DNA of 60,587 nt, the filler included, from Dugesia japonica (lineage: Eukaryota): NCBI GenBank assembly GCA_001938525.1. It is 4 parts of 4 records of this genome, joined end to end, with 100 filler letters (N's around TTAATTAATTAA, not from the genome) between each part and the next. Parts side by side here need not be neighbours in the genome. Positions count along the whole stretch, not along the records: positions 37,947 to 49,905 come from MQRL01613032.1; 3 more parts are not named here. The stretch is one strand, 5' to 3'. The position numbers and the translations under genes were made by a program. The notes beneath the pieces were generated by a model, which saw only the letters and a program-made list of their open reading frames with translations, searched no databases and was not told where the DNA came from. This document shows positions 8,781-57,599 of this stretch, in pieces. Numbering within the stretch: the first letter of the stretch is position 1; every line of letters starts with the position of its first letter.

Positions 8781-8830
8781 AGTAGATGGATAGTAGCGCA
8801 CGAGGCTACATCCCCGAGGGAGAAAATTTT
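8781..8830 (+). mobile_element. Maverick-type left terminus
   Basis: AGTAGATGGATAGTAGCG matches 17 of 18 nt of the TSD-flanked TIR at 43993. Confidence 0.65.
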
Positions 8831-11274
8831 AACTGGCCCCAATTTTTAGCGTTTATATTAGTCACACACATGTTTTAAAGGTTTTGATTGACCTAAATTA
8901 TAAAGTCAAGTGGCCCAAATTTTAAAAGTTTTGATTGGTTGAAATTTTTATGGTCAAGGTCAACTGGCCTTTTATTTGTTATGAGTCATCGATGTGTTCA
9001 AATGAGTTCATCGTAGGGTTTTAAGATCAAGGTAATTTGCTTTTGTTTAAATTAAGTGAAATTATCGATTTTTATTTAAATGAAGTGGGATTAATGATTT
9101 TTTTGTTTAAATTAATTTATTTTTATGATTGGTTTAAATTTTCGGATTTTTGAGATTTTAATTTGAATTAAGTAATCAAATGATTTTTATGGATTTTTCT
9201 TAAAACATCGATGGTAAAACATATTTTGTTTAAAATTTCAAATTTAGTAGTGAATATTCCCCCGGGTAATATTAACATTAGATGCTTCTCAGACAATATT
9301 AATAATAATATTTAAAAGACAAATGAAAAGACTAATCAAAACATAAAATTTATTTTTGATAAAACCTAGATAATCACAGTTATTATGTACAGTTGTTTAA
9401 ATCTGGATCTTCATTGTAAATTTGATCTTAATAGTACAAATTAATTAGTTTAAATAACAAAATAAATTACCTGTGAATGTGCTTCTTTTCATCCGAGNNN
9501 NNNNNNNNNNNNNNNNNNNNNNNNNNNNNNNNNNNNNNNNNNNNNNNNNNNNNNNNCCGAATGGGGTAACAGGATTAAACACAATGAACATCGAGATAAT
9601 GAAAGAGAAGTGTAAAATCAAGTTATCAATAATGTCGGAGTTAGAAATGCAGAGCTCAGGCACGATGGGTAACGGGATTGAGACAAGATAAACAACAACA
9701 TGACAATAATAATGACAAAGATGAATAAAGTAAACGACGGAATGAATCACAGTACACGAGCTTTCACTATAGGATATCGAAAAGGTGAATCTTCGTGGGC
9801 TCTGGATACAACTATCTTACAATCAGCAAAATGGATAAAGTGAATGAAAGTCTGAGTAAATCGAAGTGGTCGAGTCGAGGGAGTCGGCAACGGCTAATTC
9901 GTATCGACTATTCAGATGAAACGGCGATGAACATCAGTAATTCAAAAGAAGTCAAGTAAATCATGACATGGATTGTGCAAGGTCAAAGAAATTGAAATTG
10001 ACATTTGTTTTCCGTGGCGTGAAAAACATCGAGTAAACGTCAGAGAAAAGTCGAGTAAAGTGTGGGGAGAAATTCAGAAAGTCAGAGTAATATCAAACTG
10101 ATTTTTGTCAAGAAAATCGAAGGAACATCGAGTAAATGACATAAATTTGAATAAGACGGGGGTAGATGTTCGGGCAGTTTGAGAAACAAAGAACTAATAC
10201 TTGAATTTCTTTTCTTGTGGAATAACAAATAATCATAAAGAAGATAAATGAGATAAATTTGAATGAGCCAGTACAGAGCAATTTGAAAGTCAGGAAAATA
10301 TTGAGTTGATTTTGAATTGCTTTTCACAGTAGTATTACGGATAAACATCAAGAGATCAACAAGATGGAATAATTAAGAGGTAATTTTAATGTTAACAAAG
10401 AAATAGATGCAACAAACTCTGAGACACACAAGAAAATGATGAAATCAAAGAGAAAATCAAGTGTTATGCGAGAAATCAAAGAAAACGCCAATGATAAGAA
10501 AAATATAATGATTACTGAATTCAGAAAAAATGCTCAGCAAAGAACATCAGGAAAAAATTCAAAGAGATTAAATCAAAACAAGGAGATGATTAGTAGAAGC
10601 ATACGCGATAATAATGGGGATAAAGCACACAAGTAAATGACGAGGAATATGATTAAATGGCTAACGAATATGGAAGATTTAAATGGAAATGAATATAATG
10701 AAATGGAGAAACAGTATGGACAATCTAAATGGATAACAAGTGGACGAGATTTGTGATTAATGAGATATTAGAGAGTCAATGATAATTAATGGAAATCTGA
10801 TGACGAATTTAACAGATAATGATGAAAATTGACAAGTAATAAAAAGATTTAAGAGGTTGAAATAAAAGACAATTGATTAGATTAATAAAGTTAAAGGTGT
10901 AATAGATTATAATGATGAGGAAATAAATTAAGAATATTGAATGAAGATTAATAATTGATGAAGTTAATGATGACAAAGAGGATTAATGATGATAAAACAG
11001 ATTGTGACGAAATTATGTATGATTAAAAAAAGGGATATTATGACGAGATTAATGAATGGTAATTAATGCTGACAAGGATAAATGAATCAAGTGGTAAAGA
11101 GTTAAAGGAATATTAAAGACAAATGATATGGAGATGAAAAAGAATTATGATGAGTTTTAATGAATTAAATTAGAAGAGTATCAAGAGTTTAATGATATAT
11201 GAGGATAATTGATTAGTTAGATGGAGATAATAATGGATAAATAAATGAAAGATGATCAATTTGATAAAAATTAA

Positions 11275-21739: not shown

Positions 21740-23330
21740 AGTAGATAGGTAGTAGCGGACCGCACCACGCACGCAATCAATAACCCCCCCCCGCCGTGAC
21801 GTAACGTAATGAAATTTAATCCTAATGTATTTAGTTGGGAATTTAAAAATTGCATCATTAGGTAATAGTAATTAATTTGGGGTTACTTTTTTCTTATGTA
21901 TTATTTTGCACACAAATTATGTCATGAGATTTATTTCATCCGTGAAATTTTACGTAATATGATTAACTGGTGTTACTTTTTTCCAGTGTATTTAGTGTAT
22001 TTTTAACTTTAATCGGCAAAAAAAATTTTTTATTTTTTTAATTTTTTTTTTATTTATATTTTATTTTTTTTTGTACCATTCGTCCTAAAATTAAAAAGTT
22101 AGATAGGATTGTCTCATGAACTTGTATCGTAAAATGCTCCAATTTACCACAAAAAGTATGTCCGCAATGAACCACATTTGTTACTATTTTTAGAATTTTA
22201 TTTAATTTAAATTTGCACAGTTTTTCGATGGTATTGTCTATNNNNNNNNNNNNNNNNNNNNNNNNNNNNNNNNNNNNNNNNNNNNNNNNNNAATTTCAGA
22301 TAAAATTATTTGACTTCATGTAAATTTGATAATACTATCTCACTCTTTTTTTTCATCATTAGTATAAGCTTCCTCCCACTCTTGTTCATTTTTCTAACTT
22401 AATGAGTAGTGAGACATGTCCGCACTGAACCACCACCTCCCCCTCGGCGAGTTACTATTTTTAGATTTTTTTAAAAATTTTTTTATTTATTTTGTTTTTT
22501 ATTTATTTATTATTTTTTTTAAAATTTTTTCTTTTAAAATTTTTTTTGTACCATTCGTCCTAAAATTAAAAAGTAAGATAAGACAAAAAGTATGTCCGCA
22601 CTGAACCACATTTGTTACTATTTTTAGAATTTTATTTAATTTAAATTTGCACAGTTTTTCGATGGTATTGTCTATAATTTTTATCGGATCAAATCAAACT
22701 TGGTATCGTTAGACGCGCAATAGTGAGTCACGCAATGTTTATAAAAAGTTATTAAATTTTTAAAAACTGAACCACCTCCAATTTGAAAGATATCGTTTCG
22801 AAAATAGCACCAATGTTCCTAAAATTAAAANNNNNNNNNNNNNNNNNNNNNNNNNNNNNNNNNNNAAATGCTCCAATTTACCACAAAAAGTATGTCCGCA
22901 CTGAACCAACCCCTCCCCCCTGATGACGTACGATTGGGTTGAAAATATATGAGTAGATGTAAAATTAAAAAGTAAGATAGGAATGTCTCATGAACTTGTA
23001 TCCTAAAATGCTTCCTTCCGGNNNNNNNNNNNNNNNNNNNNNNNNNNNNNNNNNNNNNNNNNNNNNNNNNNTAGGAATGTCTCATGAACTTGTATCCTAA
23101 AATGCTTCCTTCCGGTTGAAAATTAGTAACAAAGATTTTTTTTTCCAGCGTATATTTTATTTTAAGAAAATTTTTTTTTATAAGTAGATGTAAAATTAAA
23201 AAGTAAGATAGGAATGTCTCATGAACTTTTATCCTAAAATGCTTCCTTCCGGTTGCAAAATTAGTAACAAGAAATTTTTTAACAAATTTTTTTTTTACAT
23301 AAAAATTTTTTAACAAGAAAAGTTTTTTTT
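21740..23330 (+). mobile_element. Maverick-type left terminus with long subterminal repeat region
   Basis: Starts AGTAGATAGGTAGTAGCGG followed by a C-tract. Internal repeats (aaaagtaagataggaatgtctcatgaacttgtatc; gtatgtccgcactgaacc) occur in inverted orientation at 56450-57180, next to the Maverick genes. Confidence 0.7.
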
Positions 23331-31283: not shown

Positions 31284-31333
31284 NNNNNNNNNNNNNNNNN
31301 NNNNNNNNNNNNNNNNNNNNNNNNNNNNNNNNN

Positions 31334-31390
<57 letters not shown>

Positions 31391-37196: not shown

Positions 37197-37684
37197 TAAG
37201 TTGCATAAATCTATTGCAAATAAATTGAAATCTCATTTATTTGTATTTTATTTATATTATTTTATTCACAAATTTATTATGAGAAAATGCTCATTTAGAT
37301 TTTAAAATTGACAAAATTTGATTGGCTCCTCTAGAAATGACTCTAGTGCCTGACCAGCGCTTTTACGACACTTGTTTGTAAGCGTGGTGATCAAGAAACT
37401 AATTGGGTAATAAACATTGAATGTAGCGAATCTAGTCCTTTTGAGCCCAGTCCTAGAACTACTAAACCGGCACTGTAAATTACAGTTCGAAATGTTTCAA
37501 TAATTAAAAGACAGCCGATATAAATTTATTAANCTGCCTTATCTGAATTTTGTCAATATCTTTAAATTCTAATCTTAAAGTTGTTGAAGTCTCTCCCGTT
37601 GAAGGAAATCTTGAAAAACCTCATTCTAATAACCAATTTGTTTGAGCGGTTCTTTTGTAATTAATCATAAATAAACCTCTAGAA

Positions 37685-37946: not shown

Positions 37947-38932
37947 AATCATATTGTGGTTTAACGGGACACTGGATTGCTTCCGATTGGAAACTTATTT
38001 CAGTAACATTAGGTTGCCTAGTTGTTGAAGAACGGCATACGGCTGATACAGTTTTTATGAAGAGTTTGCTGCAAAATGGAGTATTGCAGACAAAATATGC
38101 TGTATTGTAACTGAAAGTGCTTTAAATATGGTCGTTGCTATTGGGCAAACGAATTACAATCACATACTATGTATCGCACACTGTCTGCAGCTTAGCATAT
38201 TAGCGGGTTTAAAGGCAGCTGACTCATGACCGCTTTTGGCAAAATGTCGAAAATTGGTTGGGCATTTCAAACACAGCTTGGCTAACACATCCTTACTAAA
38301 AAGTAGCCATGCCAATCTCTCTCGGCAGACAGATAATGACGTGTTCCATAAATTGGATGGAGTAGTCGGTGCAGAGGTTGAACTGATGCGGTATCAAGAA
38401 AAACCTTCAATACCAGAAACAGAAGATCCACTCATTTGGTAGAAGTTAAATCAACATCAGTTTCCTGTTCTCAGTAGTTTTGTGCAGACAATTCTTTTTG
38501 TACCGGCTACATGTGTTCCCAGCGAAAAACCTTTTAGTTCATTTGAATACATAGTTAATAAGATGCGATCTTGTCTGCTTCCAAAAAATGTCAAAGCTCT
38601 GGTTTGTCTACGTGACTGGTTAAACTGATTACTTATAATTCCATAATAAAAAATGAATTTATGGTCTTCAGACGAATGTAAATTTTAAAAAGTCAATATA
38701 AATTTTACTTTTTTTAGTTTGATGTTTTTGAATTTTTGAATTAAAACGTGTGTAAAATAATCAGTCATTTAAGGCACTGCTACAATTTAATTTTACTAAG
38801 TTGTCGTGCTATCGCATGTGATGACTTTTATGAGTGCATTATGTATGTATAATTAATCGAAATTAATCGATTAATCGATTAAAAAAATTTTCGATTAATT
38901 GAACAAGAAAATTTTAATCAGTACCAGCCCTA
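37947..38932 (+). mobile_element. hAT (Ac/ZBED-like) transposon, internally deleted, with 3' terminus
   Basis: HW..DWKL..HTA..IVTESALNM..CIAHCLQL..CRKLVGHFKHS fused to the dimerisation domain DPLIW*K..FPVLS..VPATCVPSEKPFS..RSCLLP (coding to 38628). End CCAGCCCTA at 38932 with aattaatcga subterminal repeats. Confidence 0.92.
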
Positions 38933-39389
38933 ATATATATATATATATATGTGTGTGTATTGTTCTATGAGCATTAATAATAGTAATTATAGCAATAACA
39001 GTAAAAAATTGGATTACTAAAAGAATTTTTAAATTATTAAAGAATCAAATAAAATTTATATAGTAGGTTAGTATAAAGAAAANNNNNNNNNNNNNNNNNN
39101 NNNNNNNNNNNNNNNNNNNNNNNNNNNNNNNNTATATATATATGTGTGTGTGTGTGTGTGTATTGTTCTATGAGCATTAATAATAGTAATTATAGCAATA
39201 CCAGTAAAAACTTGGATTACTAAAAGAATTTTTAAATTATTAAAGAATCAAATAAAATTTATATAGTAGGTTAGTATAAAGAAAAATTAAAAAAATTTAT
39301 ACTGAAATTAAACAAAATGAAATTAAAAATATAACAATTAGAATATTAAATTAAACATAAAGAAAATCACTATTGAAAGAATTACAAAA

Positions 39390-40212
39390 GTCCATACAGA
39401 TTCTATGTAATGAAGGTGCAGCAAATGCTGTCTGACGCTACCAAGATCCAAAAAATTGCCCGATGTAAATTGCTATTGTCTTCATAAAACATAAAGCTAG
39501 TGGACGTTTAAAGTTTTTTTCCGACGAGAATATTTTTACCATAGATACCAAGGTGAACAGAAGGAATGACTGGTCGCTTACCCACAATCCAAAAGATGTT
39601 CCTGTAGTAGGTCGTACAAAATTTCCAACAAATGTGCATGTTCTAAGCAATGTTTCCAGTGAAGGTGATTTCATGCCATCATCTTTCTTTTCAAAAGGAG
39701 AAACAATTACAAAGGATTTCTATCTTCAGGTTTTAATATCGACAGTACATCCTTGGATAACAACTTTAGCTGCTGGAAGGTCATACGTATTTCAGCTCTT
39801 ATACAAGCCTCTTATGAAAAAAATGGTTATCAGAAAATTTGATAATGTTTTGGTCCAGGGAAATATGGCCTTCAAATAGTCCAGATTTAAATCCTCTAGA
39901 CTATTTTGTCTGTGGCGTTTTGGAAAGGGTTGCTAATAAGTCTAGACATGCCAATGTTGCATCCTTACAAGTAACTATTGAGGCAGCATTCGCAGATTTG
40001 TACAGAGAGCACCTAAAGAGAGCATGTTCGCGCTTACGAGAGCGAATAGAGGCTGTAATAGCTGCTAAAGGTAGCTACATTGAATGAGAATACATNNNNN
40101 NNNNNNNNNNNNNNNNNNNNNNNNNNNNNNNNNNNNNNNNNNNNNNNNNNNNNNNNNNNNNNNNNNNNNNNNNNNNNNNNNNATTTTGTCCGGATTTGGC
40201 TGGCTCACCCTG
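39390..40212 (+). mobile_element. maT (DD37D-type) Tc1/mariner element, 5'-truncated
   Basis: FFSDENIFT..NRRND..YVFQ..WPSNSPDLNPLDY..ACSRLRERIEAVIAAKGSYIE; terminus CACCCTG|TA at 40212. Confidence 0.9.
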
Positions 40213-41664
40213 TATATACATATATGATTACGATTTTCAATATTATCGGGAAAATAAATAAAATTATATTTTTTAAGTAAAGGTATTAAAGAAATTTTAA
40301 AAATTATTTTTCTTAATTGTATTTTAAGTTAATCAACTTTCTGCATTTAATTTTCATAAAATTGTTTTATTTTCATTCAAATACATTAATTTATTTTATT
40401 ACAATGGATCATACAATATTTAATATTATAAAAATTCTTTTTGACAATTTTTTATCAACTTTAGAAATGTTTTTCTTTGATGAAGTCTGGTTTTAACATG
40501 ATAAAATTTTTGTTTTTTTATATCTGATATGTAATTAATAATTGTTTATTCTGAATAATTAGATTCTTTATGAAGTGACATATTGATACTTGAATGAACT
40601 CTAAAATTATTATTTCTTACTAAATCTAGTAATATTCGTCATTTTAAAACTAATTTATTTGCTTAATAAAACTCCTCTAGATTTTATCATTAAGTGTTTT
40701 ATTTAATCTTTCAGTAAATACTGATTTGATTCATTGTATAATATAAAATAATATGTTATATTTTTAAAATAGTTAATTTTATTATCTAATTTTTTTACTT
40801 GAATCAAAATAATTTTGATTTAAATCATTATGGTATTTTAATTTTCATTACTAAATTAATTAATGCTCTTTGTATATTGTAACTCGCTGTTGAATTTTCT
40901 ATATTAATTAAACCATGGGTTAAATTTACATTTATATTTATATACATTTATATGCTGATCACTCTATTCACTACAGTATTCAATACGCCACTACTAAATT
41001 TGGCCATATTTCTGATTAGGAATGTACTCAACTTATGTACTACCAAGTTTTAATCTCATTGATTTAAATGAGTTTGGGATGCAATTATTTTCTTATAGAA
41101 TTCTATATTTATCTGTTCTAGCACATTCCATTTTAATTGGAAAGAATAATCTTGAATTTAACATATTCAGAGAATTACTAGATTGTAATGAATAAAATAA
41201 AATATCAACACATTAGATTGGCCAAGAATTTTGATATTTCTTATTTTGATATATGTTAAAAGTTTAAATTATTAATCAAGTCTAAGCTAATAGACATTTT
41301 TAATTTATAGAAATTATTGATTTGTAATATATGTTTAATGTTGAAGTTCAGTGATCGAGGTTATTCATTCAAAGTTCACTATAAAATTCAATCATGATTC
41401 AGTTAAAAATCATTATTTTCATACTTACTCAAAATTTAAAATTTCCAAAGTTTCTTTTTTCATCATTTTCAACATAGTTTATTTATTTTGATGTGATCAA
41501 ATTATGTCNATTATACATATAATATTTACACAATATTAACTTAGCATATGTTAGCAAAAGGTAAAGACTATATATATATATATAATTTTATTATATTAAT
41601 TTATTTTTTTATCTATTTTGTTTAAATATAGTCATAAATGTATAAAAAATAATTTAAAAATTAC

Positions 41665-42892
41665 CATAACACTGATAACATTTCATTATATATTTTACCA
41701 CAATATTTCCACATTTAAAACAAATGTTTGATTTATCAGTAGCTGCTATGCGAATTAATCTGTCTGTACTTGAGATAGTTGAAGCATTACTAAAAAAAAA
41801 TTTTATTTCTAATTCTTTTAAATCGTTTTGTTCAGGTACAACTTTGCAAATGATATCCATGGGAATATTTAGCATAAATATTTTATAATCTGGTTCAATG
41901 ACAATATCGAATTTAGTAGTATCTGAAAATAGATAAACTATTTTAAATCCATTTGAAATTTTAGAAAACATAAATTTATTTCTCTCATTTTCGGTTTCAA
42001 CATAACAATATTAAATTATCCAATTAAAATTCAATAAAATAAAACAAAATAAGACCATTGTCGAAAATTTGGATCTCAAACAAGGAATAAAAGAAAACCT
42101 TTTATAATTATTGAATCAATAAAAAATAGTTTGAGAACTTGCATTGAAGAATATTTTTTTAATTTGTTCTTGTAATTATTTATATCTGTATTTGTTTGTA
42201 TTTGTATTAATTTGTATTTGTATTAATTGGTATTTGTATTCCTATTTGTATTTATATTTGTTTGAATTTGTATTAATTTGAATTTGTATTAATTTGTATT
42301 TGTATTAATTGGAATTTGTATTGGTATTTGTTGGTACTTCTATTAATTTCCATTTATATTAAATCCGTTGCTGTTTACAAAAAACAAAATACGAATTTAT
42401 ATAAAACATAAATTTATTAATAATATTTTTCAAACATATTTTTAGAATCATCCTTTTCTGAACACAACAGACTTCAACGTTAATTATTTTTAATTAACAA
42501 TTAATGTATTTTTTAATTGATAACGCGCGGATTTTCTACACAAAAAGTGCATTAAAATGAAAAAAGCGATAGCATTCATCCAATTCGCAAGAAGTGTAAG
42601 ATTTATTAAACTTGCGTTATCAAAACATTTTCATTATAATAGACTAAATCCTCAATGCACGTAAGATGTGTTTTGTCGATTAGAAAATAAGGTAATTACT
42701 TTATTAAATACAAATTAAAAGTAAACAATGTATTTATTTACAATCTATAAAATATCTGAAATTCACTATTAAATTAATCCTAGATATAGTGACTTGCTTA
42801 TTAATTAATTATAAACTTCTGAAATAGGTAAACACTGATTGAATGTATCAATGTATCAATGTATCAATGTATACGATATTGAGACTATTTGC

Positions 42893-42931
<39 letters not shown>

Positions 42932-45900
42932 TAATAATAATGCTAATAATATAACTATTATTATGATTATAATTTATGTAATATTCACAACAAATTTGTA
43001 AAATTATTTTAGAAATGATCAAATATAAATGAATTTTTAGAACCTTTTCTAATATATATCACGTTTCTTTAAATCAATAAATATAAACTCACCGAAATAA
43101 TCATAACATTTCAATTTTATTTCTACTAAAATATTTCCACATGTGAAACATATTCGTCCTTTATCTTTACCATCAATGACAATCAATCTCGGACCTGATT
43201 TCGTATAGGTACTGTTATTCCAAATGAAATCTATTTCACGCACCATTTGAATTAAACTATTCGGTTGAACATCACATGTAATTTGCAATGTAACATTAGC
43301 ATAATAATATATTGGTTTTTCCGGTAGAATTCGAATTGTAATATTTGTATCTAAAAAATTAAAGCAAAAAAAAACGATTTTTAAAAATAATAATTTTGAT
43401 AATATTAAAGAATTTACCAAAGTAATTGTAACATTTTGTAACGCTTTTAAGAATTGGACTAACACAAATAAAACAAATATTTCCATCATTTGTACCCGGT
43501 ATTATTATATGGTATTTATTTATTATTTGTAATTTTGTTGAATTTCCAGAAAACGTAATATCGTCCACCATGTTTTTATCAATGATTTCATTCGGATCTA
43601 TTATGCACTTGATATCCATATTCTTATTTGGTAAATATATATCAATATTATCTGGTGTTATCGTCAGAGTTACCGGTTTTTCTGATATAAAAATAGAATT
43701 ATAAGTTATATTTTAAATCATATCATAAATTTGTAATAATAAATACAATTTCTGCATTAATATTTGTTAAACTTGACATTTGATCGTATTTTTATACTTT
43801 GAATGAAATTGAAAAATCCTTTGATCCAAATAACGTTTATTTACAAGTTTTTGTTAGCAAATTCGCAACTTTGACAAAAATAAATCCCGGAAGAAGACCA
43901 TCGTTAAAAATTCGTATTGCTAAAAAACAACTTAAGAAACGTTATTTTGATCTAAAATTTTTATTAGTAGAAATTTTATTGAATTTGATATTAGTAGATG
44001 GATAGTGGCGGATGTAGCCAGCACACATGCAGCGAACCCCCCCNCTTTGATCCAAATAACGTTTATTTACAAGTTTTTGTTAGCAATTCGCAACTTTGAC
44101 AAAAATAAATCCCGGAAGAAGACTATCGTTTAAAATTCGTATTGCTAAAAAAAATCTTAAAAAAACATTATTTTGATCTAAAATTTTTATTAGTAGAAAT
44201 TTTATTGAATTTGATATTAAAACTTTATATTCAGTTGGTAAATAGGAGAATATTCATGACAATAAGCATGATATTTATGCAGTAATAACAAATGTAAAAT
44301 TAAATTCAAAAAGTAAACTATATAGATAATAAACGAAATGTAGATTATAGTAAATCCACGGACAAAGTGTGGCTCTTGAGATACATGTAGCTCTTTGCAA
44401 ATTTTTTTATGGCTCAATTAAAATTTTTAAAGTTACAACTAAAAATTTTTAATTTTACTTATAATTGGTTGAGGGAAAAAATAGTTCTTTTCTCTTTTTT
44501 CCCGTTCAGGAAATAAAATGGATGAATTGTTTCTTTTTATTTAATAATAGTAATATTTAATTGTGTTTTTTATTTAATAAATTTAATAATAAAAATTAAA
44601 AACTTTACAGAAAAAAATTGTTTCTTTTAATATTAGCTATAATAATAATAATAAAATTAAATTCAAATTCATGTTAAATCGAGAACATATATATATTGTT
44701 CCATATATATATATAATTATATATACATTATAATTTATCAATAAAATTTTTTGTACCTTTAAGTTATTTTTGTTTCAATCTATAAACGGTTTATAAATTA
44801 GTTCAGATAGATTTGAATTTATCCCTAACAAAGGTATATATTATAAAATATNNNNNNNNNNNNNNNNNNNNNNNNNNNNNNNNNNNNNNNNNNNNNNNNN
44901 NGGGGGGGGGTTCGCTGCATGTGTGCTGGCTACATCCGCCACTATCCATCTACTGATATTAAAACTATATATTCAGTTGGTAAATAGGAGAATATTCATG
45001 ACATTAAGCATGATATTTATGCAGTAATAACAAATGTAAAATTAAATTCAAAAAGTAAACCATATAGATTATAAACGAAATGTAGATTATAGTAAATCCA
45101 TGGACAAAGTGTGACTCTTGAGACACATGTCGCTCTTTGCAAATTTTTTATGGCTCAATTATAATCTTTAAAGTTACAACTAAAAATTTTTACTTTTACA
45201 CATAATTGGTTGACGGAAAAAATAGTTCTTTTCTCTTTTTTCCCGTTCAGGAAATAAAATGCATGAATTGTTTCTTTTTATTTAATAATAGTGTTATATC
45301 TAATTGTGTTTTTTATTTAATAAATTTCATAATAAAAATTAAAAACTTTACGGAAAAATTTGTTTCTTTTAATATTAGCTATAATAATAATAATAAAATT
45401 AAATTCCGATTCATGTTAAATTTTATATATATATATATATACATTATAATCTATCAATAAAATTTTTTGTACCTTTAAGTTATTTTGTTTCAATCTATAA
45501 ACGGTTTATAAATTAGTTCAGATAGATTTGAATTTATCCCTAACAAAGATATATATTATAAAATATATAAACGTTATGTTTACTAGAGTTATTGTTGAAA
45601 CTTTAACTAAATTTTATTAAAAACATATAATATCAAATAAAAAAAAATAATGAATAAATTTCTCACCATAACGATCATAACATTTAGTAAATTCTTTAAT
45701 TTGCGGATTTCCACAATTAAAACAAATTTTATTTACAGTCGCTTTTTTAACAAGTATTATCCATAATGATAAACTCTGGAAATTTTCACTAAGACTTTTT
45801 AGAGACATGTTGAATTGAGGTTCTTGATAATGATTGGGAAATATTGAACAAATAACTTGCATTTCAACATTTGGTAAATAAATAGAATAATTTGGAATGA

Positions 45901-48900
45901 TATTTATAGTTAAATTTCTTGGATCTTGAAAAACAGAAAATTAAAANNNNNNNCTTTATTTATTTATTTATTTTAATTCACTATATATTAATCTTATTTT
46001 AATATATAATTTTTTATTAATATATATTATAAAAATTATTAAATGTTAATTGTAAAATAATTTTAAAATATTAATTGAAACTGCTTTAATTTATATTATA
46101 TTCATTCATTATTTAACTTTAATGAAACAATTGATAATTTCGCCAACTGATTTATTTGAAAAAATGTATATTGTTAGATGAGTTTGTAGCACTTGATTTG
46201 TTTCCAGAAATTAAGTTATCGGTATATAAACATTATTTAAATGATATTTTCGTGGTGTTTAAGAATCAATCCAATGTAGAATCTTATCTTATTTATATGA
46301 ATTCCTTAATCGGTAATATAAAATTNACCACTGAAATTGAACGTAATGGTAAATTTACTTTTCTTGATTTACTACAAGACCGCCAATCTGATCATTATGA
46401 AACAGGAATATTGCACAAACCATTATATTGGCTTGTAAAGTTCAAAAAGCAACTAACACGATTTATTAAAAAACCAATTTAAAAATTATTGTGAACACTT
46501 ATTAAAATATTGTAACATTTTAAAATGTTGTTTTTAAAAAATTTGTTTAACTATCCTATTTTAATAATTTAATTTTCGATCTTTATTTGAAATCAATTAA
46601 TAAAACTTTTAATGAATTTTTAGATGAAAGCCGAAGAAATTCAAATTTTTGTCATTGTCTATTATATGAGTATAGAAAAAGATCAACTGCCTCAAATGCC
46701 TATCGAAACATATTATTTGTTTATTTTGATTCAGGTTTATCACTGAATAAATGCCAAAAATGGTTCCAAAAGTTCAAGGAAGGGGATTATGATCTATCAG
46801 AAAGTAGAGGAGAAAGTTATTCAAATTTTGATGACGATGCCTTTTGGCTCAAATCGAAGAAGAACCAAGGCATACAACTTGAGAATTAAAAGATTGCCTA
46901 CAGGTATCTCACACCACTATTGCCACTCATCTTTATTAGTTAGGCAAAGTAAGTAAAGAAGGGCCATGGGTTCCTCATTGCTTAAGTGAAAGCAGCAAAT
47001 AGAACAGGTTGATCATTTTCTCTTCTCTCCAGATTCTAGAAAGAAAACTCTTTAAAATGAATTGTGATAGGCGATGAAAAGTGAGTGTTACGTTAATATA
47101 AAAAGAAAGAAGCAATGGCTAACACCAAAGAAGGACTTCATCCCTAACGGATAATGATGTCTGTTTGATGGAATTATTACAGTGTAATATATTATGAGTT
47201 ATTGCAAAAGAAACATGCCTATTACAGCAACAATTTAATGTGATCAAATAGAAAAACTCGAATCTGAATTGAAAAAAGCAAGACCACGATCGATTAACAG
47301 AAAGAATGTTATTATCCAACATGCGTGTAATACATCATACTTCAAAACTGACACTGCAAAAAATTAGAGATTTAGAATGGGAACTTCTTCTTCATACAGC
47401 ATACTCACCTGATAACGCTTCTTCAGATTATCACTTTTTCAGGTCTCTACAAAATTACCTGAGTGGTAAAGAATTTTCAATAGAGGACGATATAAAATTG
47501 CCGTGGAAACTTTCTTTACATCAAAGTGTTCTTCTTTTTATGAGGATAGGATAATGAATTTGCCTTTAAGATGGCAAGGTGTCATAGACAATAATAGAAA
47601 TTATTTCGATTAAACTTGTTATTTTTCCTTTGTCAAAATTGATTTTTTTTAAAATCAATTATATTAGTTGCCTTTTGAACTATACAAGCCAATAAATTTA
47701 ATATGATTAAAGGATTAACTCAAAATTCTTGGACTAACTTATTCGAAATTGTGTAGAAATATTCACAATCTGCCGTCTTTTTTAAAAAAAATGGATATTC
47801 TAAATCAATTTTCGAAAGATTTACTAAGAAAAAATTGATAGAATTGTTCTTAACATTAATAATAATCTAAATAATGAAAAGTTTTATCTAATAAAATTGA
47901 TTAAGTTAGATATTTTTAAGCATTCCTTACCTTGAGGACTTTTAACCAAGACGTCTTATGGATTGGTTTCTAATTTTATTTATAAATATGGGTGTAATGT
48001 GAAAGAGACTTCTCGTTAATTCTGTTAAATATTTCAGAAACATAGTCGATTAGGTAGTCGTAGTAATATTATAGAACATAATATTTAGTGTGAATCATTT
48101 ATAAATATTTATAAATTTAACATTTTGTGCAGAAACGTTAGAGATTACTGTGAGAGAATTAAACGCGAAGAATTGATTATTAGATCTTATGATCCAAAAA
48201 AGTAATGTTCAACCTGGTCTTTTAAAATCTTTACTGAATGTATTATTTATTTGTATGTATATATATTTATATGTATGTATATTTATTTAATTTTAATTTC
48301 ATTGAGACTGTTAATCAATTGTATAATGCAGACCTTTAGTATAATATACCTTACTCTAAGTTTAAAATAGTATTTTTAAAATAATTAAAAATAAAGTTTA
48401 TTTTGAAATTATATATTTTAAAAAAAGTCGATCATAACTAGATAAATTAAAAAAATTAAAGGACAAATTAAATTTTAATATTTACTTGAAAATTAGAAAA
48501 TTGATTGTTGACTATTGAAGAAGTATTTTTTAAAAGAAATTTTGTGTTAAATTAATGCGTTATTTTAAAGAGTTTAAAAACTTTGAACCTTCACGAAAAT
48601 TTTCTTGGAAGGTTACTTGGAAAANAGAATTCATCAAAAATCGAAATCCAAAGTGTTCTGTAATTCGAAAAACCAATTCTTGAATTAGAAATTCATGGAA
48701 TGCTTTATCATCGGAAAAAATAAGAAATTATATTAAAACTGTCGGATTTTTATCTGATATTAGTGGTAAAATATATCAAACATTATTTAATGAATTATAT
48801 TTATTACGAAAATTGTTTGATTTAATAGCTGAAAAAATTCTATATACATAGAATATTTTTTAGAGTTATTTAAGTTATTACTTGAAAATTTTAATTAATT

Positions 48901-49905
48901 CAAGTTTTAATTTATTTTTAATTTATTTTATTTTATTTATTTATATTTTAAAATATGAAATATTTAAATTAATGTTGAATGTACAAAAATGTGAAATATT
49001 TTTGCAGAATATTAAAACAAAAACTTTTCGAAGTAATTAATAAGCTTTTTTAGATTGTGAGTATGTTTTGAGAAGTGAGTTGAAATTTTTGTGCTTTGGT
49101 TGGAAGTTATTTTTGTAAAAAATTGAAAGTCAAAAATTAATTAAGAAAAATATTAAAGTAAATTAAATTAAATTTTTATACAAAAATTATGAATAGTTAA
49201 AAATTAATTTGAATATCAAAATTTAATATTTTTGTTTTTGATAATAATTCGAAATTTCGACTTTGTCTTCGTCAGGAATGGACTTTTTCAATTGATTTTT
49301 CGTAAACTCCTGACGAATACAAAGTCGAAAAATATAATTATTATCGAAAACTAAAAGAAAACAAAAAAATAGTTTTTGATCGAAGCTTTTATTTCAATGA
49401 ATTACAATATTTATTATAATAATTTTACAAATAATATTTTATTAAAAATAACTCAATAAATACAATTTCTTAAAACCCACCAACATAAATGTAACACCGG
49501 AAATCAATTGTTAACATAACATGTCCACATGAGAAACAAATAGTTCCTTTGTCTATACCGGAAACTGTGATTTTACGATCGGTAGCTTTGAATGTACTAT
49601 TATTTATTATGAAATCAATTGCTTTAAAAACGTTAAGAAGTTTATCGGGAGATACTTGACAACTTACAATCATTGTTTTATTGAAATAATAGAAATCTTT
49701 ATCATTTGGACTTATGAATATTTTGTAAGGCTCACCTAAAATCTTCGATTAATTTGTTGTAAATATTTAGATAAAATCATTAACTGAATGGATCATAACA
49801 CTTGGTAACATTAGCAACTAATTGACTACCACAAATGAAACAAATGTTTCCATGACTTCCTTGAGGAATTTCAATGTCTCTTGAACTTTTCTTAATTAAA
49901 TTTGA
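41665..49905 (-). CDS. Spliced host gene (or gene cluster) of tandem ~86-aa four-cysteine modules, probably extracellular
   Basis: Symmetric phase-1 GT-AG exons: 49785-49905 (partial), 49481-49735, 45667-45924, 43418-43681, 43093-43350, 41665-41922. All are open and end ICFxC(G/V)x8-9CY. Confidence 0.85.
42180..42360. repeat. Low-complexity tandem repeat (tttgtattaa/tttgta units)
   Basis: Direct observation. Confidence 0.8.
42892..42930. repeat. (ATT)n microsatellite
   Basis: Direct observation. Confidence 0.9.
43993..44954. mobile_element. Both ends of a Maverick-type insertion (interior unassembled, filled by the empty allele)
   Basis: Identical ~50-bp TIR ends at 43993-44043 and 44902-44954; 6-bp TSD GATATT at 43987-43992 and 44955-44960; single GATATT empty site at 44213-44218. 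Confidence 0.88.
46150..48240 (+). mobile_element. Penelope-like retroelement fragment (RT C-terminus plus GIY-YIG endonuclease), interrupted by mariner
   Basis: YKHYLNDIFVVF..NIKFTTEIERNGKFTFLDL..HKP before the mariner; KNGY..IPYL..KETSR..SNIIEH..FNILC..EELII...P.NVQ after it. Confidence 0.8.
46428..47692 (+). mobile_element. Full-length degenerate mariner (DD34D)
   Basis: TIRs TTGGCTTGTAAAGTTCAAAAAGCAACTA / TAGTTGCCTTTTGAACTATACAAGCCAA with TA flanks, ~1.27 kb; motifs WFQKFKEG, WVPHCL, GDEK, YSPDNASSDYHFF. Confidence 0.95.
49247..49279 (-). ncRNA. Minimal type I hammerhead ribozyme candidate
   Basis: Minus strand AUUC-CUGACGA-A-GAC(AAA)GUC-GAAA-UUUC-GAAU: stem I AUUC/GAAU, intact core, stem II, UH cleavage site, vestigial stem III. 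Confidence 0.65.
49305..49403 (+). ncRNA. Second, inverted, partly degenerate hammerhead repeat copy
   Basis: CTGACGA-a-tacaaagtc-GAAA at 49310-49330 followed by the family tail ttattatc..ttttgatcgaagcttttatttcaatgaa. Confidence 0.45.
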
Positions 49906-50005
49906 NNNNNNNNNNNNNNNNNNNNNNNNNNNNNNNNNNNNNNNNNNNNTTAATTAATTAANNNNNNNNNNNNNNNNNNNNNNNNNNNNNNNNNNNNNNN
50001 NNNNN
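49906..50005. other. Artificial scaffold linker
   Basis: 44N-TTAATTAATTAA-44N. Confidence 0.95.
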
Positions 50006-50737
50006 CACACTCCTACACGATATCGTTTACTCGTTTTTGTAAACTTACGATATCGATCCGGTATAGGTCCAACGCTACAACGCCATCCATTTTTAGGGTT
50101 GGTTGATTCGGCAGATGAGGTGTTACTTATTCCTTAGCGGATAACGACTTCCATGTCCACCGTCTTGCTGTCTTTATAAAACAGCATTTTTTGTGGGTTC
50201 TCATGAGCGTTATATTAGGCACCTTTATCAGATGTTTGGTTGATCCCACATCGCCAGTTTTGCTTATCAAAAATGGCCCACTAGACACTTGTATTCGATG
50301 CACTTCTTCAATGAAGAAAGACGCACTGCGAACCCATTTAAAGTTTGAGAATAAGTTGAGGACAATTTGTCCCCAATGCTTCTAATCATTCGCTTTACCA
50401 GGTAAATCTACAATAACAAATGTCAGCTATTCTGAGGAAAAATTCGGAGGGAACCAGCTACTAGATTGTTCGATTAGTCTTTCGCCCCTATACTCATGTC
50501 CAACGATCGATTTGCACGGCAGAACTGCTGCGGTTCTCCAACAGAGTTTCCTCTGGCCTCAACATACACAGGAATAGTTCACCATTTTTCAGGTCTCTAC
50601 ATGACCGCTCAAACTCCGTCGAGATACGAATATCTTTAGATGGGTCGATGTTGCACTCTGTGTTTCAACGAGGTCCTATCACAGTTTATCGAAATAAACC
50701 TTTACATTAATGGCGCCGTGGGGTTTTGTAAAGCCCT
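50006..50737 (-). rRNA. 28S rRNA: Eukaryotic 28S (LSU) rRNA fragment, probably a pseudogene copy
   Basis: Reverse complement of conserved LSU blocks: cgccatccattt..gttgattcggcag, acccatttaaagtttgagaata, ggagggaaccagctactaga..ttcgattagtctttcgcccctata. Substitutions occur in normally invariant positions. Confidence 0.95.
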
Positions 50738-50992
50738 TTGAATTATAATAGAGATACAAATGATGTTTCTCTTAACGCAATGGGATATGGAAATAATGAA
50801 TTTAGACAAATAATCATTAGATCATCAAAACTAAGTTCTCTATGTGATCCTCTACAACTAGACTTCATGGATCAACCGAAATATCTTATTCCAGGTGTTA
50901 ATGCTCACATTCGACTTAAAAGAACGGATACAAGAATGTGTTTAGAATCCAAACTTCGTGAACCAAAATATAAGTTATGGATTCAAAACTAA
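50738..50992 (+). pseudogene. Maverick/Polinton major capsid protein fragment
   Basis: PLQLDFMDQPKYLIPGVNAHIRLKR matches the Polinton MCP motif L..D.F.Q.k.l..gV..ri.L.R, and lies next to pPolB. Confidence 0.7.
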
Positions 50993-51059
50993 TGATTAGA
51001 TCATCATCAATTTTAGTTGTTTTTCTGAATCTAGCTTTTGATGTACATCTCATTAATTT

Positions 51060-53251
51060 TATTTTATTTAAAAGCTTATAATAATTCTTCTTTAACTCTG
51101 ATTTACATTCTGACCTTAATTTAGTGTTAACATCTATATATTTTTTAAAAATAGATACCTGACTAAACTTTACACTTCATATACCTTTGTTATTTATACA
51201 ACCAATTGTAAATAAATGTTTAGCAATCTCCAGTGTATGACCTTATTTTTCATCAGGTCATGAGTCAACAGTAATTGTTTTACTTTTGATCCTGGAGCAC
51301 TTTGATGTTCTACTACAACAGGTAAGTCATTTAATTCATCTTGAATTTCTGCTGGTATAACCCTTTCTATCTATAACCATTTCTATGTATTTATATGGTA
51401 ATGAGTTAAGGTCCTTTGTCTTACATTCTTTCAAAACCTCTGCTAAATTTGAATATACCAATTCAAAGTCCTTAAAGGACAACTTCTGACTTAATGCCCA
51501 ACCATATAGATTGTTGTTTTCGTTACTAACAACCTGGTGTTTATTGACGAATATCAGCCAATTTAGTATACCACTCTCAAAACGGTATACATATCATTAT
51601 CTGTTAGCATTTTAATTGGCTTATTTAATGACATCAATGCAGATGCCCAACTCATACCCGGGATGCCAAAGAATTTTAATGGCTCCAAATTATTATGTGC
51701 CAATGATTTATTTCTGAACTGTGGAAAGAAATCGGCTAACAGAGACACACCTAGTTTTAAATATACTAGCATATAATTCAATAAATTTCTGGATCCTGTT
51801 ATAGTCCACATTTGCAATGCTTTTTTATAATCGTGCTCACTAACTTTCTTCCATCTTAGTGGCATCGTGGTTGTTTCAACCAGAACTTGCAAATTGGTTG
51901 CATAATTATAAGGAAATATCCTCTTTGACATTGTTATTCTGCTATCTCATTTGTTTTCAAAGATGTATCTTTTAAGGATTTGACTGNTGCGTCTAATGAA
52001 NAGTTTATAAACTGGTACGAGTCAATAAATCTGATTGTAATTTCTTTCAGATGTCCAATGAGGCATATGAATTTTTCAGACGTTGTTTGTATGCACGACA
52101 TGGCCCAATGTAGAAATTTATTTAATCTATACTTTAATATGTGGTGAAGGTCATATCCTCTCAAATTACGGAAGACTACTGGTAACTGATAGTTGATTCT
52201 TCTGTTTTAATTGCATTTATTACAAGCCACTCATATATACTTGCCTGTAAAATGGTCATGATCCCGAACTGGATTACTTAAATGTNNNNNNNNNNNNNNN
52301 NNNNNNNNNNNNNNNNNNNNNNNNNNNNNNNNNNNNNNNNNNNNNNNNNNNNNNNNNNNNNNNNNNNNNNNNNNNNNNNNNNNNNNNNNNNNNNNNNTGA
52401 TTTCCACCACTGCCTTTAGGAATTTATTTACGCATTCATTTACAATAAACTGACTGTATTTGACTTCATTTGTAAAATTACTGATTCAAAATCAGCATAT
52501 ATTACAAAGGGTGGAGTTATAGTTTTGGAGTAATCCTGAAACTCTAGATTATTTTCTGTTGGCATCTTGTATAATGTTGTGACCGTCTAAATTTTCTCAA
52601 AAATTGGCTTATGAGTCTTGTAAGCCTAGAATCCATTAAGACAATTTTGTACTTGATTGATTATACTCTTACCCCCAGCCTTTTTAATATATCTGTTCAT
52701 CAACCTATTCCAATCCATAACTCCAGTGTAATGAATTTGTTGGCATCTTTCAATAACAACGTTTTTATTTTCCAAGTTTTTNNNNNNNNNNNNNNNNNNN
52801 NNNNNNNNNNNNNNGCTAATATATAATACCTTAGTGATTTTAAAATTTATTTCCAATATGTGGCTCAGTATCCAACTATATCAAAGCTCGCTTCTTATTG
52901 CTATCTTTTTATTTTACTGGTTTATTCCATCTTCGAAAAAGGAATCGCTCAATGGAACAGCTCGATTTGACAATCTACAAGTTTTTGTTTCGTCTTCTTT
53001 TTTAGAATTAAACATTGATTTCAAATTGGATCTTGGCAGTTTTTAATTCTTCAATAATTTTGAATAACTTCACAGTCAAGGAGTTTACTAAAACGATTTC
53101 TCTTGTATTCCACATTGAAATATCCATTTTTTAATACCTGATGACATTTATACGAGTCACTTTCTATTATGACATCTTCATTGAGAGAGTCACTAACTTG
53201 TGNNNNNNNNNNNNNNNNNNNNNNNNNNNNNNCAATATCTTCTTCATCCAT
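51060..53251 (-). pseudogene. pPolB: Protein-primed family B DNA polymerase of Maverick/Polinton, degenerate and 3'-truncated
   Basis: In order: PFVIYADFES, VRDHDHFTGKY..CNKCN, PVVFRNLRGYD, RFIDS, IFPYNY, PGMSW, NNLYGWALSQ, KYIDVNTKLR..YYKLLN. Confidence 0.93.
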
Positions 53252-54424
53252 TTCGTCTATGATTTTAAAATTGGTCCAGTCATCTTCAATTATCTGAGTC
53301 TATTTTCATTTCTTCATCTGAGACAATATCTAGTTTTCGTTTTTTTGTTGCTGGACCATTTATCTCTCTATCTAATATCATCCTTAATAATTGTTTCTTT
53401 TTTATTGTAAACTTTCTTAAGTGGTCTGCATGCAACATATAAAAGTCTGGATAAAAAAATTAAATAAATAAAAAAGTTTTTGTACATAAATTAAAATTAT
53501 CAAAAAATACTCATAATATCATGAAATTTAAAAGTTAAACATTAAAATAATTTTTCAAGATTACTTTTAAAAATTCATTAAGAAAAATTATTAAAAGTTC
53601 ATTTAAAAATTAACATAAAATACATTATAAAATAAATAAAAACTAACTTTTATCCTAATAAAGAGCAGCAACAACAGAAGCATCATAATTCTAAAATAAA
53701 TAATTTTAACAACTATCCAGTGTTAATAAAAAATTTATTTTAATTAAACTCTTCCTCTGGATACCCCTCCCGCTTTGATGGGAATTATTATAATTCTTAA
53801 ATAAAATTAATAACTATTAAATAATAACAATAAATTTACATTATCCATCATTAAACTTGACAAATTCATATTTTGATTATCGTTCATATTGTACATAACC
53901 TGAAAACAATTAATTAATAATAATGAAAATCATTGGTTTCTCTTCCTTCGGTCAACAAAGTTCTCAAAATGTTTATGTTTATAATCTAAATAAATATATA
54001 ATAAAAAAAGATGAAAATAAAATATTACTTATACAAAATTGTCGCTTTTAAAAATAGTTTTTTTAAAGTACTGCAACGTAGTATAATGTTGCATTTACAA
54101 AGTAATTAGTCATGAAAATAACAAAGGCATGTTTTTTGATTATAACAATGATTATTTAACTACTTCATAATTTAAATTTTAAAAAAACAAATAAATATTT
54201 TTATATAATACATTGATTTACATACAACATATACATTTTCAACTAAAATTTTGATTATTTTTCACACATAATGTCAATTTTCAGTTGAAACGTTGATTTT
54301 TAAGCCACAATAGACAATGTTGACCGCAGGTTGTTGTAAATGGATTTTGAAATCTGATTTTGTTATATTGAATTAGCTTGGATATTTTTTAGAGATGCAA
54401 GACAAACATAAGCTGATAATAACA

Positions 54425-54745
54425 TTGAACAGAGTAGCTCTTGCAAATCGATTGAATACATTAATAAATGTCAAAATATGCTTGTATTCTTTATTTATTT
54501 TTGAATATGGGATCATCTCCATCAAATACATTTGTCATAAATCATCAATACCAAACGTTTTATATGCTTTTGTTGGAAACCTTTTCAACATTTGTTTGTT
54601 CAAACTATACGCTAGTTGACCCGATAACCACTTTATGGTTTTTGATTTTGATTTTTGAGGTGCTTTCATTAATTTTTCTACGCATCGAAAACCTGCAGGA
54701 TTTTTTGCGTCCGTCCATATTGTCTTTAGTTTACCCATTACAACA
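54425..54745 (-). pseudogene. Maverick retroviral-like (rve) integrase, N-terminal fragment
   Basis: NPAGF..VEKL..WLSGQLAYSLNK..KRFP....GIDDL*Q..EM..YSKINKEYKHILTFINVFNRFA. Confidence 0.88.
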
Positions 54746-54854
54746 ACTTGATGAAAATTTGAAATCAAAAATAGGTTATGATTGTAAACCACCCATTGTT
54801 TATTTGGAATCAGTTATATTAGTACTGTTGCTATAAAATCAACCATTGTTTATT

Positions 54855-55160
54855 TAAAATGAGTAAATCCTAGTGCTGCTAATGCAATGAGTATAAAGCT
54901 ACCTCCTTGATTATCTCGTATTACTCGCCTTAAGATATTTCTAATTTTGTATTTACAAATTGTAATATGGCTAATTTATGTTTTTTCAATACATCGTTTC
55001 TAGCATTGCTCACATTTACATTTCCGCGAACGATATTTATAATAATTTCAATTAAATCATCCATAACAAACTTTGAAAAGGCTTTCAAAATTTGCATTCT
55101 CGACGATTTTGGAAATTTAATTAATGATGTAAAAAATGGAATACTTCGTTGTAATTTCAT
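54855..55160 (-). pseudogene. Maverick small basic protein with QGG plus hydrophobic (pX-like) tail
   Basis: DDLIEIIINIVRGNV..LKKHK, then after a break NQGGSFILIALAALG; located between ATPase and integrase. Confidence 0.65.
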
Positions 55161-55194
55161 TTTATATTTTAATATAACTTACCGTATTTGTTTA

Positions 55195-55863
55195 TAATGT
55201 AGTCCATTTTCCGTTTATTTTCGATAGTTTCTTAGAAATATAATAATTACCTTGTTTATACACGGTACCACCATCAAGATTGAAAATATCGGTTCTCACC
55301 CTTAGTTCGTCGGGACATTGTTGCATAAAGTCGATAAAAATATAAACATGTACATTTATTGTTGCATCTTGAAATGATTCAATAAAAAATTGTCTATTGT
55401 TAGGATAAGCCTGGCTAGCTAGGAAATCGATAACTGTTTGATCTCTTGGATTTTCAAATAAAACAAAGTATTTTACATTTAAATTACGAGTCTTATGACT
55501 TCGCNNNNNNNNNNNNNNNNNNNNNTAATAAATATAACAGTCACATTACAATGTCTGGATACTTTTGTAAATAAATTAAAGTCTTTTTCTTTATTAGCCT
55601 CCTAATACAAGTCATCAATTATAATTACATCTCCTGATTTCAATCCTTTCCTCCAAATAGAATCTAACACTAATAATGTTCATTTTAATGTTGCAAAATT
55701 CTGATTGTGTTAACCCATGTTCTTGATCTGCGCCTCTGTGCCAATATATTTTTTAAAATTTTGATTTAGATAAATTTGATTTTAGTTACTTGCATACAAA
55801 TAAGGTTTTTCCGCTTCCACTTGGACCAAAATTTTGATAAACTGCATCATTTCTCAAATCCAT
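55195..55863 (-). pseudogene. Maverick packaging ATPase (A32/FtsK-like)
   Basis: Walker A GPSGSGKT, Walker B VIIIDDL, LFTKVSRHCN, FENPRD, RVRTDIF. Contains stops. Confidence 0.92.
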
Positions 55864-57599
55864 TTTATATAAAACTATATTTTAATATATTATTTATACT
55901 ACTTTTTGTTTAAATGTATCAATTAATTTAATTTCTGTAAAATATATATATATATATATAAATGCTGAAAATTGTAAAAAATAATTATTAATTTTTGTTA
56001 ATATAAATTAATATAGTTTCATTTGACGTATAATAATATCCTATATAATAAAAATAAAAAATTTATTTGTTCTAGTTCTTTATTCTTTAAATTGTATCGA
56101 AACAAATGGCTTTTTATACTAGTCGTTAATATAATTTATAGGCAATTTTTAATTTTTTATAAAATTATACAAGATTAAAATTGAAAAAATTAAAAATGGC
56201 GCCTGTATCTTATTTTTAAAGTTTCTTTGTGTAATAACGTGTTATGATTACGTCAGATGAAATGTTTTTATACACCAATTTGTCCGCCAATGCAGAGCGC
56301 GTTGTTCAAAATCAAGACGCGATATCATGTTTCTACTTAACCCTATTCTGAAACAACTGAATTTCTTTGTTACCATTTTTCGTTGGGAAGGAAGCATTTT
56401 AGTATACGAGTTTATGAGTCATTTGTTTTACTTTTTATTTTACATCTAACCATAAATTTTTATCCAAATAGGTAGTCACTAGGGGTGATGGGGTTGGTGT
56501 CATGCTGACATACCTTTTGTGGCGAACTGTGGCATTTTTAGACACAAGTACTTTAGGTGATGTATAGTTAGTGTTTAATTTTTAGAAGATTGGTAAAGAT
56601 TTAGGGCGATATTTTTCAAAATGGCGCCCAATTAAAATATAAATCTTAAATAAATTTTTAAGGCTATCCCTGACAAAAAATATGAATGCATAATAGCGCA
56701 TATTCACTTTGCGCGTCTAAAGGATACAAAATTTGATTTGATCCAATAAGAATTATGCACAATAAAATTTAATAACTGGGAAGTTTTTGAAAATTGATTA
56801 CGTAATTGATTACGTGATCAAATAATTAATTTTTTGAATACATTTTTAATGGGGAAGGAATTATTTTACGATACAAGTTTATTACACATTCCTATTTTAC
56901 TTATTAGTTCCCTATCCGATGGTGTTACGCATAACCTTGAATGACCTTTGAAAAAAGAATTTTCGATGACCTTAAAAAAAATTGAAAATAAAATAACGAA
57001 AATATAAAATCAAAAAAATATTTTCCCTTCGGGAGCGCGGGGTTGTGCGGTTATTAGACATGTACCACTATTTAATTTTTAAATTGGATTTTAAAATGGA
57101 AATAATTATTTTACGATACAGGTTCATGAGACAATCCTATCTTACTTTTTCATTTCCTATCTAGTCGTTTAAATAAAAAAACAAAAAAATTTGAAACATG
57201 AAAACAAAAAATATTAATATTAAGTTTGTGTGGGAATTAAAATATGAAGTCTACCTGAGGAAGTCTGGCAGGATGACCTTGAAACACTTCAACCAATCAG
57301 AACGTAGGATACTATATCACTTTGACTTTGAAAAATTCTATCTTTAAATTTTTAGCCAATCAAAATTGAGTATACTCAAACACGGACCAACCCGAATCAA
57401 GTATATTTTATCAGTTTTACCTTGAAAAAAAAATTCTTTCACGGCGGGAGTGATATAGTGCACTAGAATCTACCTACTATAATTGATAAATTCAGTATAT
57501 TTATCTCTCAATGTAGTCTCACATCAAAAAAAATGCCATAGGTTTTACTGCAAGGGAAGTTTTTATACTATGTTTTTTGGAAATTCGGGTGAACAACTC

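Follow-up and report, generated by a model that had tools for sequence, protein, structure and literature searches.

Polinton/Maverick elements are described as having a polymerase, an integrase and a 6-bp target duplication (PMC6431247, PMC10045372), and lengths of ~13-25 kb are given for them (PMC8097293 and one of the Caenorhabditis preprints cited below). Those of vertebrates are reported with (AGT)2 or (AG)3 ends, 6-bp duplications, repeats of 46-1447 bp and sizes of 12.7-24.6 kb (PMC8097293). Polintons that are either present or absent at a site have already been published for insects, nematodes and a flagellate. The insect pangenomes analyzed with Pannagram revealed 685 long variants in one cluster, many of which carry polinton genes and some of which have no polB (10.1101/2025.02.07.637071), and within Caenorhabditis species the copy number and position of polintons vary (10.1101/2023.08.22.554363; 10.1101/2024.01.15.575659). 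For the EMALE virophages of Cafeteria, duplications were defined from the comparison of empty and filled alleles, and putative heterozygosity together with terminal repeats gave trouble in assembly (PMC8547959). Ginger elements are reported with TGTNR ends and duplications of 4-5 bp (PMC2836005), IS3EU/GingerRoot with 6-bp duplications and TA..TA or TG..CA ends (PMC10045372), and hAT elements with 8-bp duplications and YARNG ends (PMC3014272). A literature search over titles and the openings of abstracts returned nothing relevant on planarian Mavericks, which may still be in print, and the main text of PMC11410931 mentions neither Maverick nor Polinton.

The window analyzed here is a stretch of 60,587 nt (filler included) made of four scaffolds of the Dugesia japonica assembly GCA_001938525.1. 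The scaffolds are joined by artificial linkers at 24375, 37847 and 49906 (44 N, a 12-nt all-frame stop spacer and 44 N), and those on either side of a linker have no physical linkage in the window. Its GC content of ~22-35% per 2 kb is that of AT-rich eukaryotic DNA. The third scaffold (37947-49905; MQRL01613032.1) contains a Maverick-like insertion site, which we interpret, with a probability of about 65%, as a heterozygous Maverick-family insertion caught together with its empty haplotype.

Layout of the insertion site and its host gene

The site is composed of the following features:

43819..43986, plus strand: left host flank of the putative filled haplotype, 95.5% identical to 44045-44219 over 176 columns; part of it is repeated in the empty copy
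43987..43992, plus strand: left target-site duplication GATATT, in the preferred 6-bp parse
43993..44043, plus strand: left terminal inverted repeat (TIR), outer 51 nt only (44 nt and C7), beginning AGTAG and stopping in the C run
44044: single-N assembly joint
44045..44851, plus strand: empty version of the site with both flanks, 807 nt, with one GATATT at 44213-44218
44852..44901: 50-N joint
44902..44954, minus strand: right TIR, outer 53 nt only (G9 and 44 nt)
44955..44960, plus strand: right target-site duplication GATATT
44961..45566, plus strand: right host flank of the putative filled haplotype, 91.4% identical over 642 columns (24 substitutions, 7 gaps)

This order of left flank, GATATT, TIR, N, empty copy, N, TIR, GATATT and right flank is the one proposed in the first-pass annotation, which it bears out coordinate by coordinate. 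The two TIRs, also described there as identical, agree at 51/51 nt, a comparison limited to the outermost nucleotides because both ends break at N. A 25-nt pattern of the end matched twice in the window, a count reached in 0 of 100 shuffles, and the GC content of the left TIR is 59%, against 20% in the surrounding intron. Only ~50 nt of each end precede the N joint, as expected from the earlier remark that the interior had not been assembled. The alignment of filled and empty flanks has 810 columns (777 of them ungapped), with 30 substitutions (3.9%) and 9 gap events, in keeping with a slightly diverged second copy of the flanks carrying a single GATATT and no insert. The N joints sit exactly at the two edges of the empty copy, and on each side both versions of the flank converge on a single sequence.

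The insertion was said to sit in an intron of a gene built of repeated modules, and this is the case. The gene spans 41665-49905 on the minus strand and has at least five exons of one module each, plus a partial sixth cut by the end of the scaffold:

49735-49481, minus strand: module exon, open, multiple of three, phase 1
45924-45667, minus strand: module exon upstream of the insertion, 258 nt, open, phase 1
43681-43418, minus strand: module exon downstream of the insertion, 264 nt, open, phase 1
43350-43093, minus strand: module exon, open, multiple of three, phase 1
41922-41665, minus strand: module exon, open, multiple of three, phase 1

All introns between these exons are phase-1 and GT-AG. 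The one that carries the insertion (45666-43682 in the direction of the gene) is ~1017 nt long when empty, and the insertion lies 305 nt from its acceptor. The modules are 29-42% identical to the first exon of the alignment and have four mostly conserved cysteines. Their relatives are few: 11 sequences, all unnamed, among 1.84 billion representatives at E <= 0.001, and a word-based homolog search with the module alignment retained 0 of 6621 candidates. The gene showed no convincing Pfam family. The model of one module is a beta-sandwich (pLDDT 72, pTM 0.61) whose best matches are the Ig domains of VCAM-1 and TrkA (Z 7.5, rmsd 2.7-3.0, 80-82 aligned residues); Foldseek with the same model gave no match at E <= 0.001, and the atlas Ig hits were below 0.9. 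Judged from this model, the fold is probably Ig-like, and the gene may belong to a lineage-restricted, multi-copy Ig-like family.

Relics of other transposons are present at 37950-38650, 39400-40200, 46426-47694 and 33880-34330. Among them are the dimerisation domain of a hAT element (PF05699, E 2.7e-13) and pieces that, by their motifs, we take to be Tc1/mariner-like, one of which has inverted ends at 46426 and 47694 and occupies another intron of the module gene. A further host gene, with short introns and coiled-coil-like exons, lies on the plus strand at 30780-31950 and 36700-37200, interrupted by a long TAA microsatellite.

Origin of the empty copy

The window contains 37 runs of N, seven of which are 50 N long. 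Near-identical flanks on the same strand were found at six of these seven gaps (one of them a TAA microsatellite), against 2 of the 30 other N runs and 1 of the 11 single-N joints. Moreover, long and short versions of one region stand side by side at 24475-28921, with blocks that are 95-100% identical, the long version carrying ~1.5 kb and ~1.3 kb of extra sequence. Together, the gap pattern and this pair of versions suggest that placing alternative haplotypes one after the other is a habit of this assembly. Most such gaps stand for overlapping rather than missing sequence, and the 50-N joint therefore gives no length for the interior. A repeated 6-mer stands on both sides of the first extra block at 24475-28921, which has no obvious inverted ends.

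The most plausible reading of the empty copy is thus a second haplotype, which the assembler would have set into the gap, and the duplicate flanks at six of the seven 50-N gaps lend support to the segregating insertion with an empty allele that had been proposed at first. The main competitor of this reading accepts the same Maverick insertion and derives the empty copy from a recently duplicated paralog of the module-gene locus, in which case the insertion could be fixed. The module gene does appear to have a multi-copy family, given its 11 relatives, and a divergence of 3.9% with nine indel events would be unusually large between the alleles of many species. Nevertheless, those relatives are only ~24-58% identical to the exons of the window, the two flank versions merge into one sequence on either side, and the other duplicate pairs at gaps are haplotype-like, with identities of 95-100%. 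We therefore regard a paralogous origin as unlikely and retain the allelic one.

Junction and identity of the inserted element

At the insertion site, the filled and empty copies have 8 bases in common (TGATATTA), which had been missed in the first reading. An enumeration of the junction parses over the 12 terminal nucleotides gave no mismatch for a 6-bp duplication with AG..CT ends and none for an 8-bp duplication with G..C ends, and one mismatch each for a 4-bp duplication, a TA duplication and no duplication. Because of the 8 common bases, the 8-bp and TA parses are also formally possible; the 6-bp duplication, a perfect match, is the preferred one. Related ends were sought with the first 20 nt of the focal end, allowing a mismatch at position 1, and a fourth end was found from a 9-letter end motif:

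8781..8840, plus strand: related end, 18/20 nt identical to the focal end (2 mismatches)
21740..23330, plus strand: related end followed by ~1.6 kb of subterminal repeats, 17/20 nt (3 mismatches), with a C run at position 45
535: related end, 5 mismatches in 20 nt
57478: related end found from the 9-letter motif, 13/20 nt matching the focal end, weak when taken alone

The scan gave two hits at <=3 mismatches and three at <=5, neither count being reached in any of 300 local shuffles; at <=6 mismatches the count was reached by 21% of the shuffles and is not significant. The 9-letter motif was not discriminating, with 5 occurrences in the window for a shuffle mean of 1.3 and a maximum of 4. Across the six aligned ends (two focal, 8781, 21740, 535 and 57478), AGTA is found in 6/6 while the preceding base varies (T, C, T, T, T and A), and the boundary of the element was accordingly placed at the A of AGTAG.

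The relation of the focal ends to Mavericks takes two steps, from the focal end to the end at 21740, and from there to the end at 57478 and the genes behind it. In the first step, the C run of the 21740 end falls at position 45, the same place as in the focal ends. In the second, the 21740 and 57478 ends have common subterminal blocks at 349-396 and 324-371 nt from their tips (94% identity), and their regions align in 14 pieces (best E 1.5e-30). The 57478 end belongs to a decayed Maverick, one of several such remains in the window:

50700..57478, minus strand: decayed Maverick with its end at 57478, subterminal repeats common with 21740, and gene relics
55246-55863: ATPase relic with stops and frame breaks, starting 1.6 kb inside the 57478 end
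54933-55178: small ORF beside the ATPase
54436-54738: N-terminal part of an integrase
51566-51946: polymerase piece, family B, probably protein-primed
57500-60178: second decayed Maverick piece, directly beyond the 57478 end, with an ATPase relic at 59765-60178
8365-8709: homolog of the small ORF, Maverick-type, 47% over 66 aa

Pfam reported no family in any of the eight Maverick-like pieces submitted, and the genes were therefore identified from homolog and atlas searches. The C-terminal piece of the ATPase has 45 relatives among 72 candidates (58-74% identity), 39 of them with PF04665, which we take to be the A32-type packaging ATPase. For the integrase piece, 3 of 19 candidates were relatives, all with PF00665 (presumably rve) and 75-84% identical; a search of solved structures with this piece returned one irrelevant match (E 0.33). 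These close relatives of ATPase and integrase, for both of which the longest contig listed is 6631 nt, may derive from one intact related element. The polymerase piece has atlas neighbours at 0.97-0.98, in which 13-17% of the members carry DNA_pol_B_2, with a recognition value (2217) below the 2300 mark; from their motifs, we presume that further polymerase-like pieces extend to ~52600 and that a PZ-like piece lies at 50732-50989. The second decayed piece has blocks in common with 1488-2293 (72-83% identity). All Maverick genes seen in the window are fragmentary or disrupted, and none of the pieces recognized by the homolog and atlas searches was a capsid or protease gene. The intact capsid-encoding element first suggested to exist elsewhere in the genome would thus be speculative. 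A decayed piece of large-subunit rRNA (50003-50754, minus strand, 523 bits) abuts the Maverick relic; its sequence appears flatworm-like, and a triclad would be consistent with the short introns and the base composition of the window.

Taken together, the related ends and their tie to decayed Maverick genes make it probable that the focal ends belong to the Maverick/Polinton family. The 6-bp duplication with AG..CT ends had been presented as the signature of such an element; the family assignment is supported, indirectly, by the related ends, and the junction by itself does not fix 6 bp, given the rival parses. The focal end reads AGTAGA, a match of 5/6 nt to the (AGT)2 motif of vertebrates. 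Positions 1-11 of the focal end agree at 11/11 with 8781 and at 9/11 with each of 21740 and 57478. A Repbase rule for gene-less elements is quoted as requiring 11 aligned terminal nucleotides with at most one mismatch (PMC4455052). It groups the focal end with 8781, behind which no genes were seen, and misses 21740 and 57478 by one position.

The TA parse would correspond to a cut-and-paste element of the Tc1/mariner type with repeats beginning two bases further out, at the cost of one mismatch in the 12 terminal nucleotides. TATT precedes the motif at three of the six ends (focal left, 8781 and 21740), and in a likelihood sketch that assumes no target preference the 6-bp parse scores 1.1e-7, and TA 1.1e-3 multiplied by the chance of the difference at position 2 of the right end. 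The junction bases alone thus favor TA, a conflict that would disappear if the integrase had a preference for AT-rich sites centred on TA. Ginger2, which has an integrase close to the Polinton one, is described as preferring RTATAY (PMC2836005); titles and abstract openings in a literature search contained nothing relevant on the target-site preference of Mavericks, which may still be in print. Against TA, this parse requires six coincidental matches to host bases and one end difference that happens to equal the host base, the ends at 535 and 57478 begin AGTA and yet have no TATT, and the 21740 end runs into repeats common with the Maverick relic. No transposase family was found by Pfam in the 34 pieces behind the related ends, a weak null because Pfam also missed the mariner-like pieces of the window, and these pieces match only themselves. 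Overall, we consider a Tc1/mariner-like origin quite improbable.

A Mutator-like or other element that makes an 8-bp duplication and has G..C ends is also free of mismatches at the junction, but the three related ends from the scan tolerant at position 1 all start with A (chance 0.05, or 0.007 with both focal ends), and we give this reading hardly any weight. Three named families were rejected from the ends themselves. Under the 8-bp parse the ends start with GTAGA, which departs from the YARNG described for hAT (PMC3014272); no parse gives the TGT ends of Ginger1 and Ginger2, whose duplication length is also unfit; and the 6-bp parse yields AG..CT instead of the TA..TA or TG..CA of IS3EU/GingerRoot.

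Other searches around the ends gave little. Partner ends with matching 6-bp flanks were sought for the four related ends with a 10-nt pattern, and the four hits for three of them (none for 535) were judged to be chance. The folding of five ends revealed none stabler than shuffles (the focal and 21740 ends had z between -0.06 and +0.05, and the best value, -1.87, was that of 535), and no terminal hairpin is claimed for this reason. Rfam gave two sub-threshold chance matches over the junction region, and a scan for bacterial promoters and terminators, not applicable here, was at chance level. By eye, a 10-nt word at positions 18-27 of the focal end is reverse-complemented in the end at 8781 (8781-8820), resembling a loop inversion. 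The first scaffold also holds a nest of Maverick-derived sequence (535-8780, 8781 and 21740), with an old end, a small ORF and two younger ends, which suggests several waves of invasion. A decayed retrotransposon-like region extends over 11500-17300, with gag-like zinc-knuckle pieces, recognized by eye, at ~14600-15200.

For the preferred Maverick reading, we propose that protein-primed replication would make a linear copy of the element, which a retroviral-type integrase would insert into the AT-rich, near-palindromic site of the ~1-kb intron, the staggered cut and fill-in repair duplicating 6 bp of the target. The insertion would lie on one haplotype and be absent from the second, ~4% diverged there. 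The assembly would then have broken in the C/G run ~45 nt into the repeated ends, which may belong to a multi-copy TIR longer than the 53 nt seen, since the 21740 end continues past the C run, and the contig of the empty haplotype would have been placed into the gap by the assembler.

Age of the insertion and comparison with known systems

On the allelic reading, the element was inserted after the two haplotypes had separated, which is a loose bound. With TIRs as diverged as the flanks, 51 nt would still show no difference with a probability of 0.13, and the end-to-end divergence has a 95% upper bound of 5.7%. The identity of the 51 nt thus does not date the insertion, as it would be compatible even with the age of the haplotype split. 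The related ends have all diverged from the focal end. Recent activity is plausible; the description of the element as recently or currently active goes further than haplotypes 3.9% apart and ends bounded only to <5.7% allow, and we do not keep it.

Current activity would be implied if the empty copy were the product of a precise excision, or if the insertion had arisen de novo in the sequenced material, and the identical ends and perfect duplication would suit both. However, an excision product should have flanks identical to those of the filled copy, whereas 30 substitutions and nine indels were seen, so the empty copy is not the excision product of the filled chromosome, and we see these origins as very improbable; a third version, the filled haplotype without its insert, would be invisible in the assembly if collapsed. 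Finally, Mavericks carry cargo (10.1101/2025.02.07.637071), and the arrangement could be real as written, as a tandem duplication or an element with a copy of its own target site, but this is barely credible for a segment bounded by N joints on both sides, with an inner copy 3.9% diverged between identical TIRs and a gap pattern that recurs elsewhere in the window without any element.

If it is indeed allelic, the empty copy is the cleanest proof of integration for these ends. It would then also point to the young part of the Maverick family in this genome, the place to look for an intact copy. Whether animal Mavericks form virions is described as a question still open (PMC8097293), which makes hosts with young insertions useful. 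It is doubtful that an intact Maverick with capsid genes, from a family that can still move in this host, fills the unassembled stretch between the ends; the focal copy would then be the latest of several waves marked by the ends at 535, 57478, 21740 and 8781, and the distinguishable haplotypes would themselves report on natural excision and on any allele-specific effect on the Ig-like gene. The case contributes a single further locus but no new mechanism, since presence/absence polintons are already documented and ~50 nt per end are available here. It also carries a practical warning: scaffolds from short reads may place an empty haplotype inside an insertion, mimicking captured or duplicated sequence.

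Among the known systems, Ginger1/Ginger2 and IS3EU/GingerRoot resemble this element in having TIRs and integrase-related or similar DDE enzymes, and differ from it in the sequence of their ends. The EMALEs are protist virophages with duplications mostly of 3-5 bp and known reactivation, and are not animal Mavericks (PMC8547959). In Caenorhabditis, polinton insertions and remnants are reported to affect host genes (10.1101/2023.08.22.554363; 10.1101/2024.01.15.575659); at this locus, the insertion lies in an intron of the host gene. The polintons of insect pangenomes are described as having fully assembled interiors and families of many near-identical copies (10.1101/2025.02.07.637071), against one site and its ends at this locus, and in both cases the insertion is a structural variant between haplotypes, provided that the empty copy is an allele. 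Compared with Polinton/Maverick elements themselves, the focal element, whose ends alone are assembled, departs from the vertebrate motif at one of six positions (AGTAGA), and it has the TIRs and, in the preferred 6-bp parse, the duplication and the AG..CT termini near (AGT)2//(ACT)2 described for this superfamily (PMC8097293, PMC10045372), in a genome that also holds relics with the ATPase, the integrase and the family-B polymerase.
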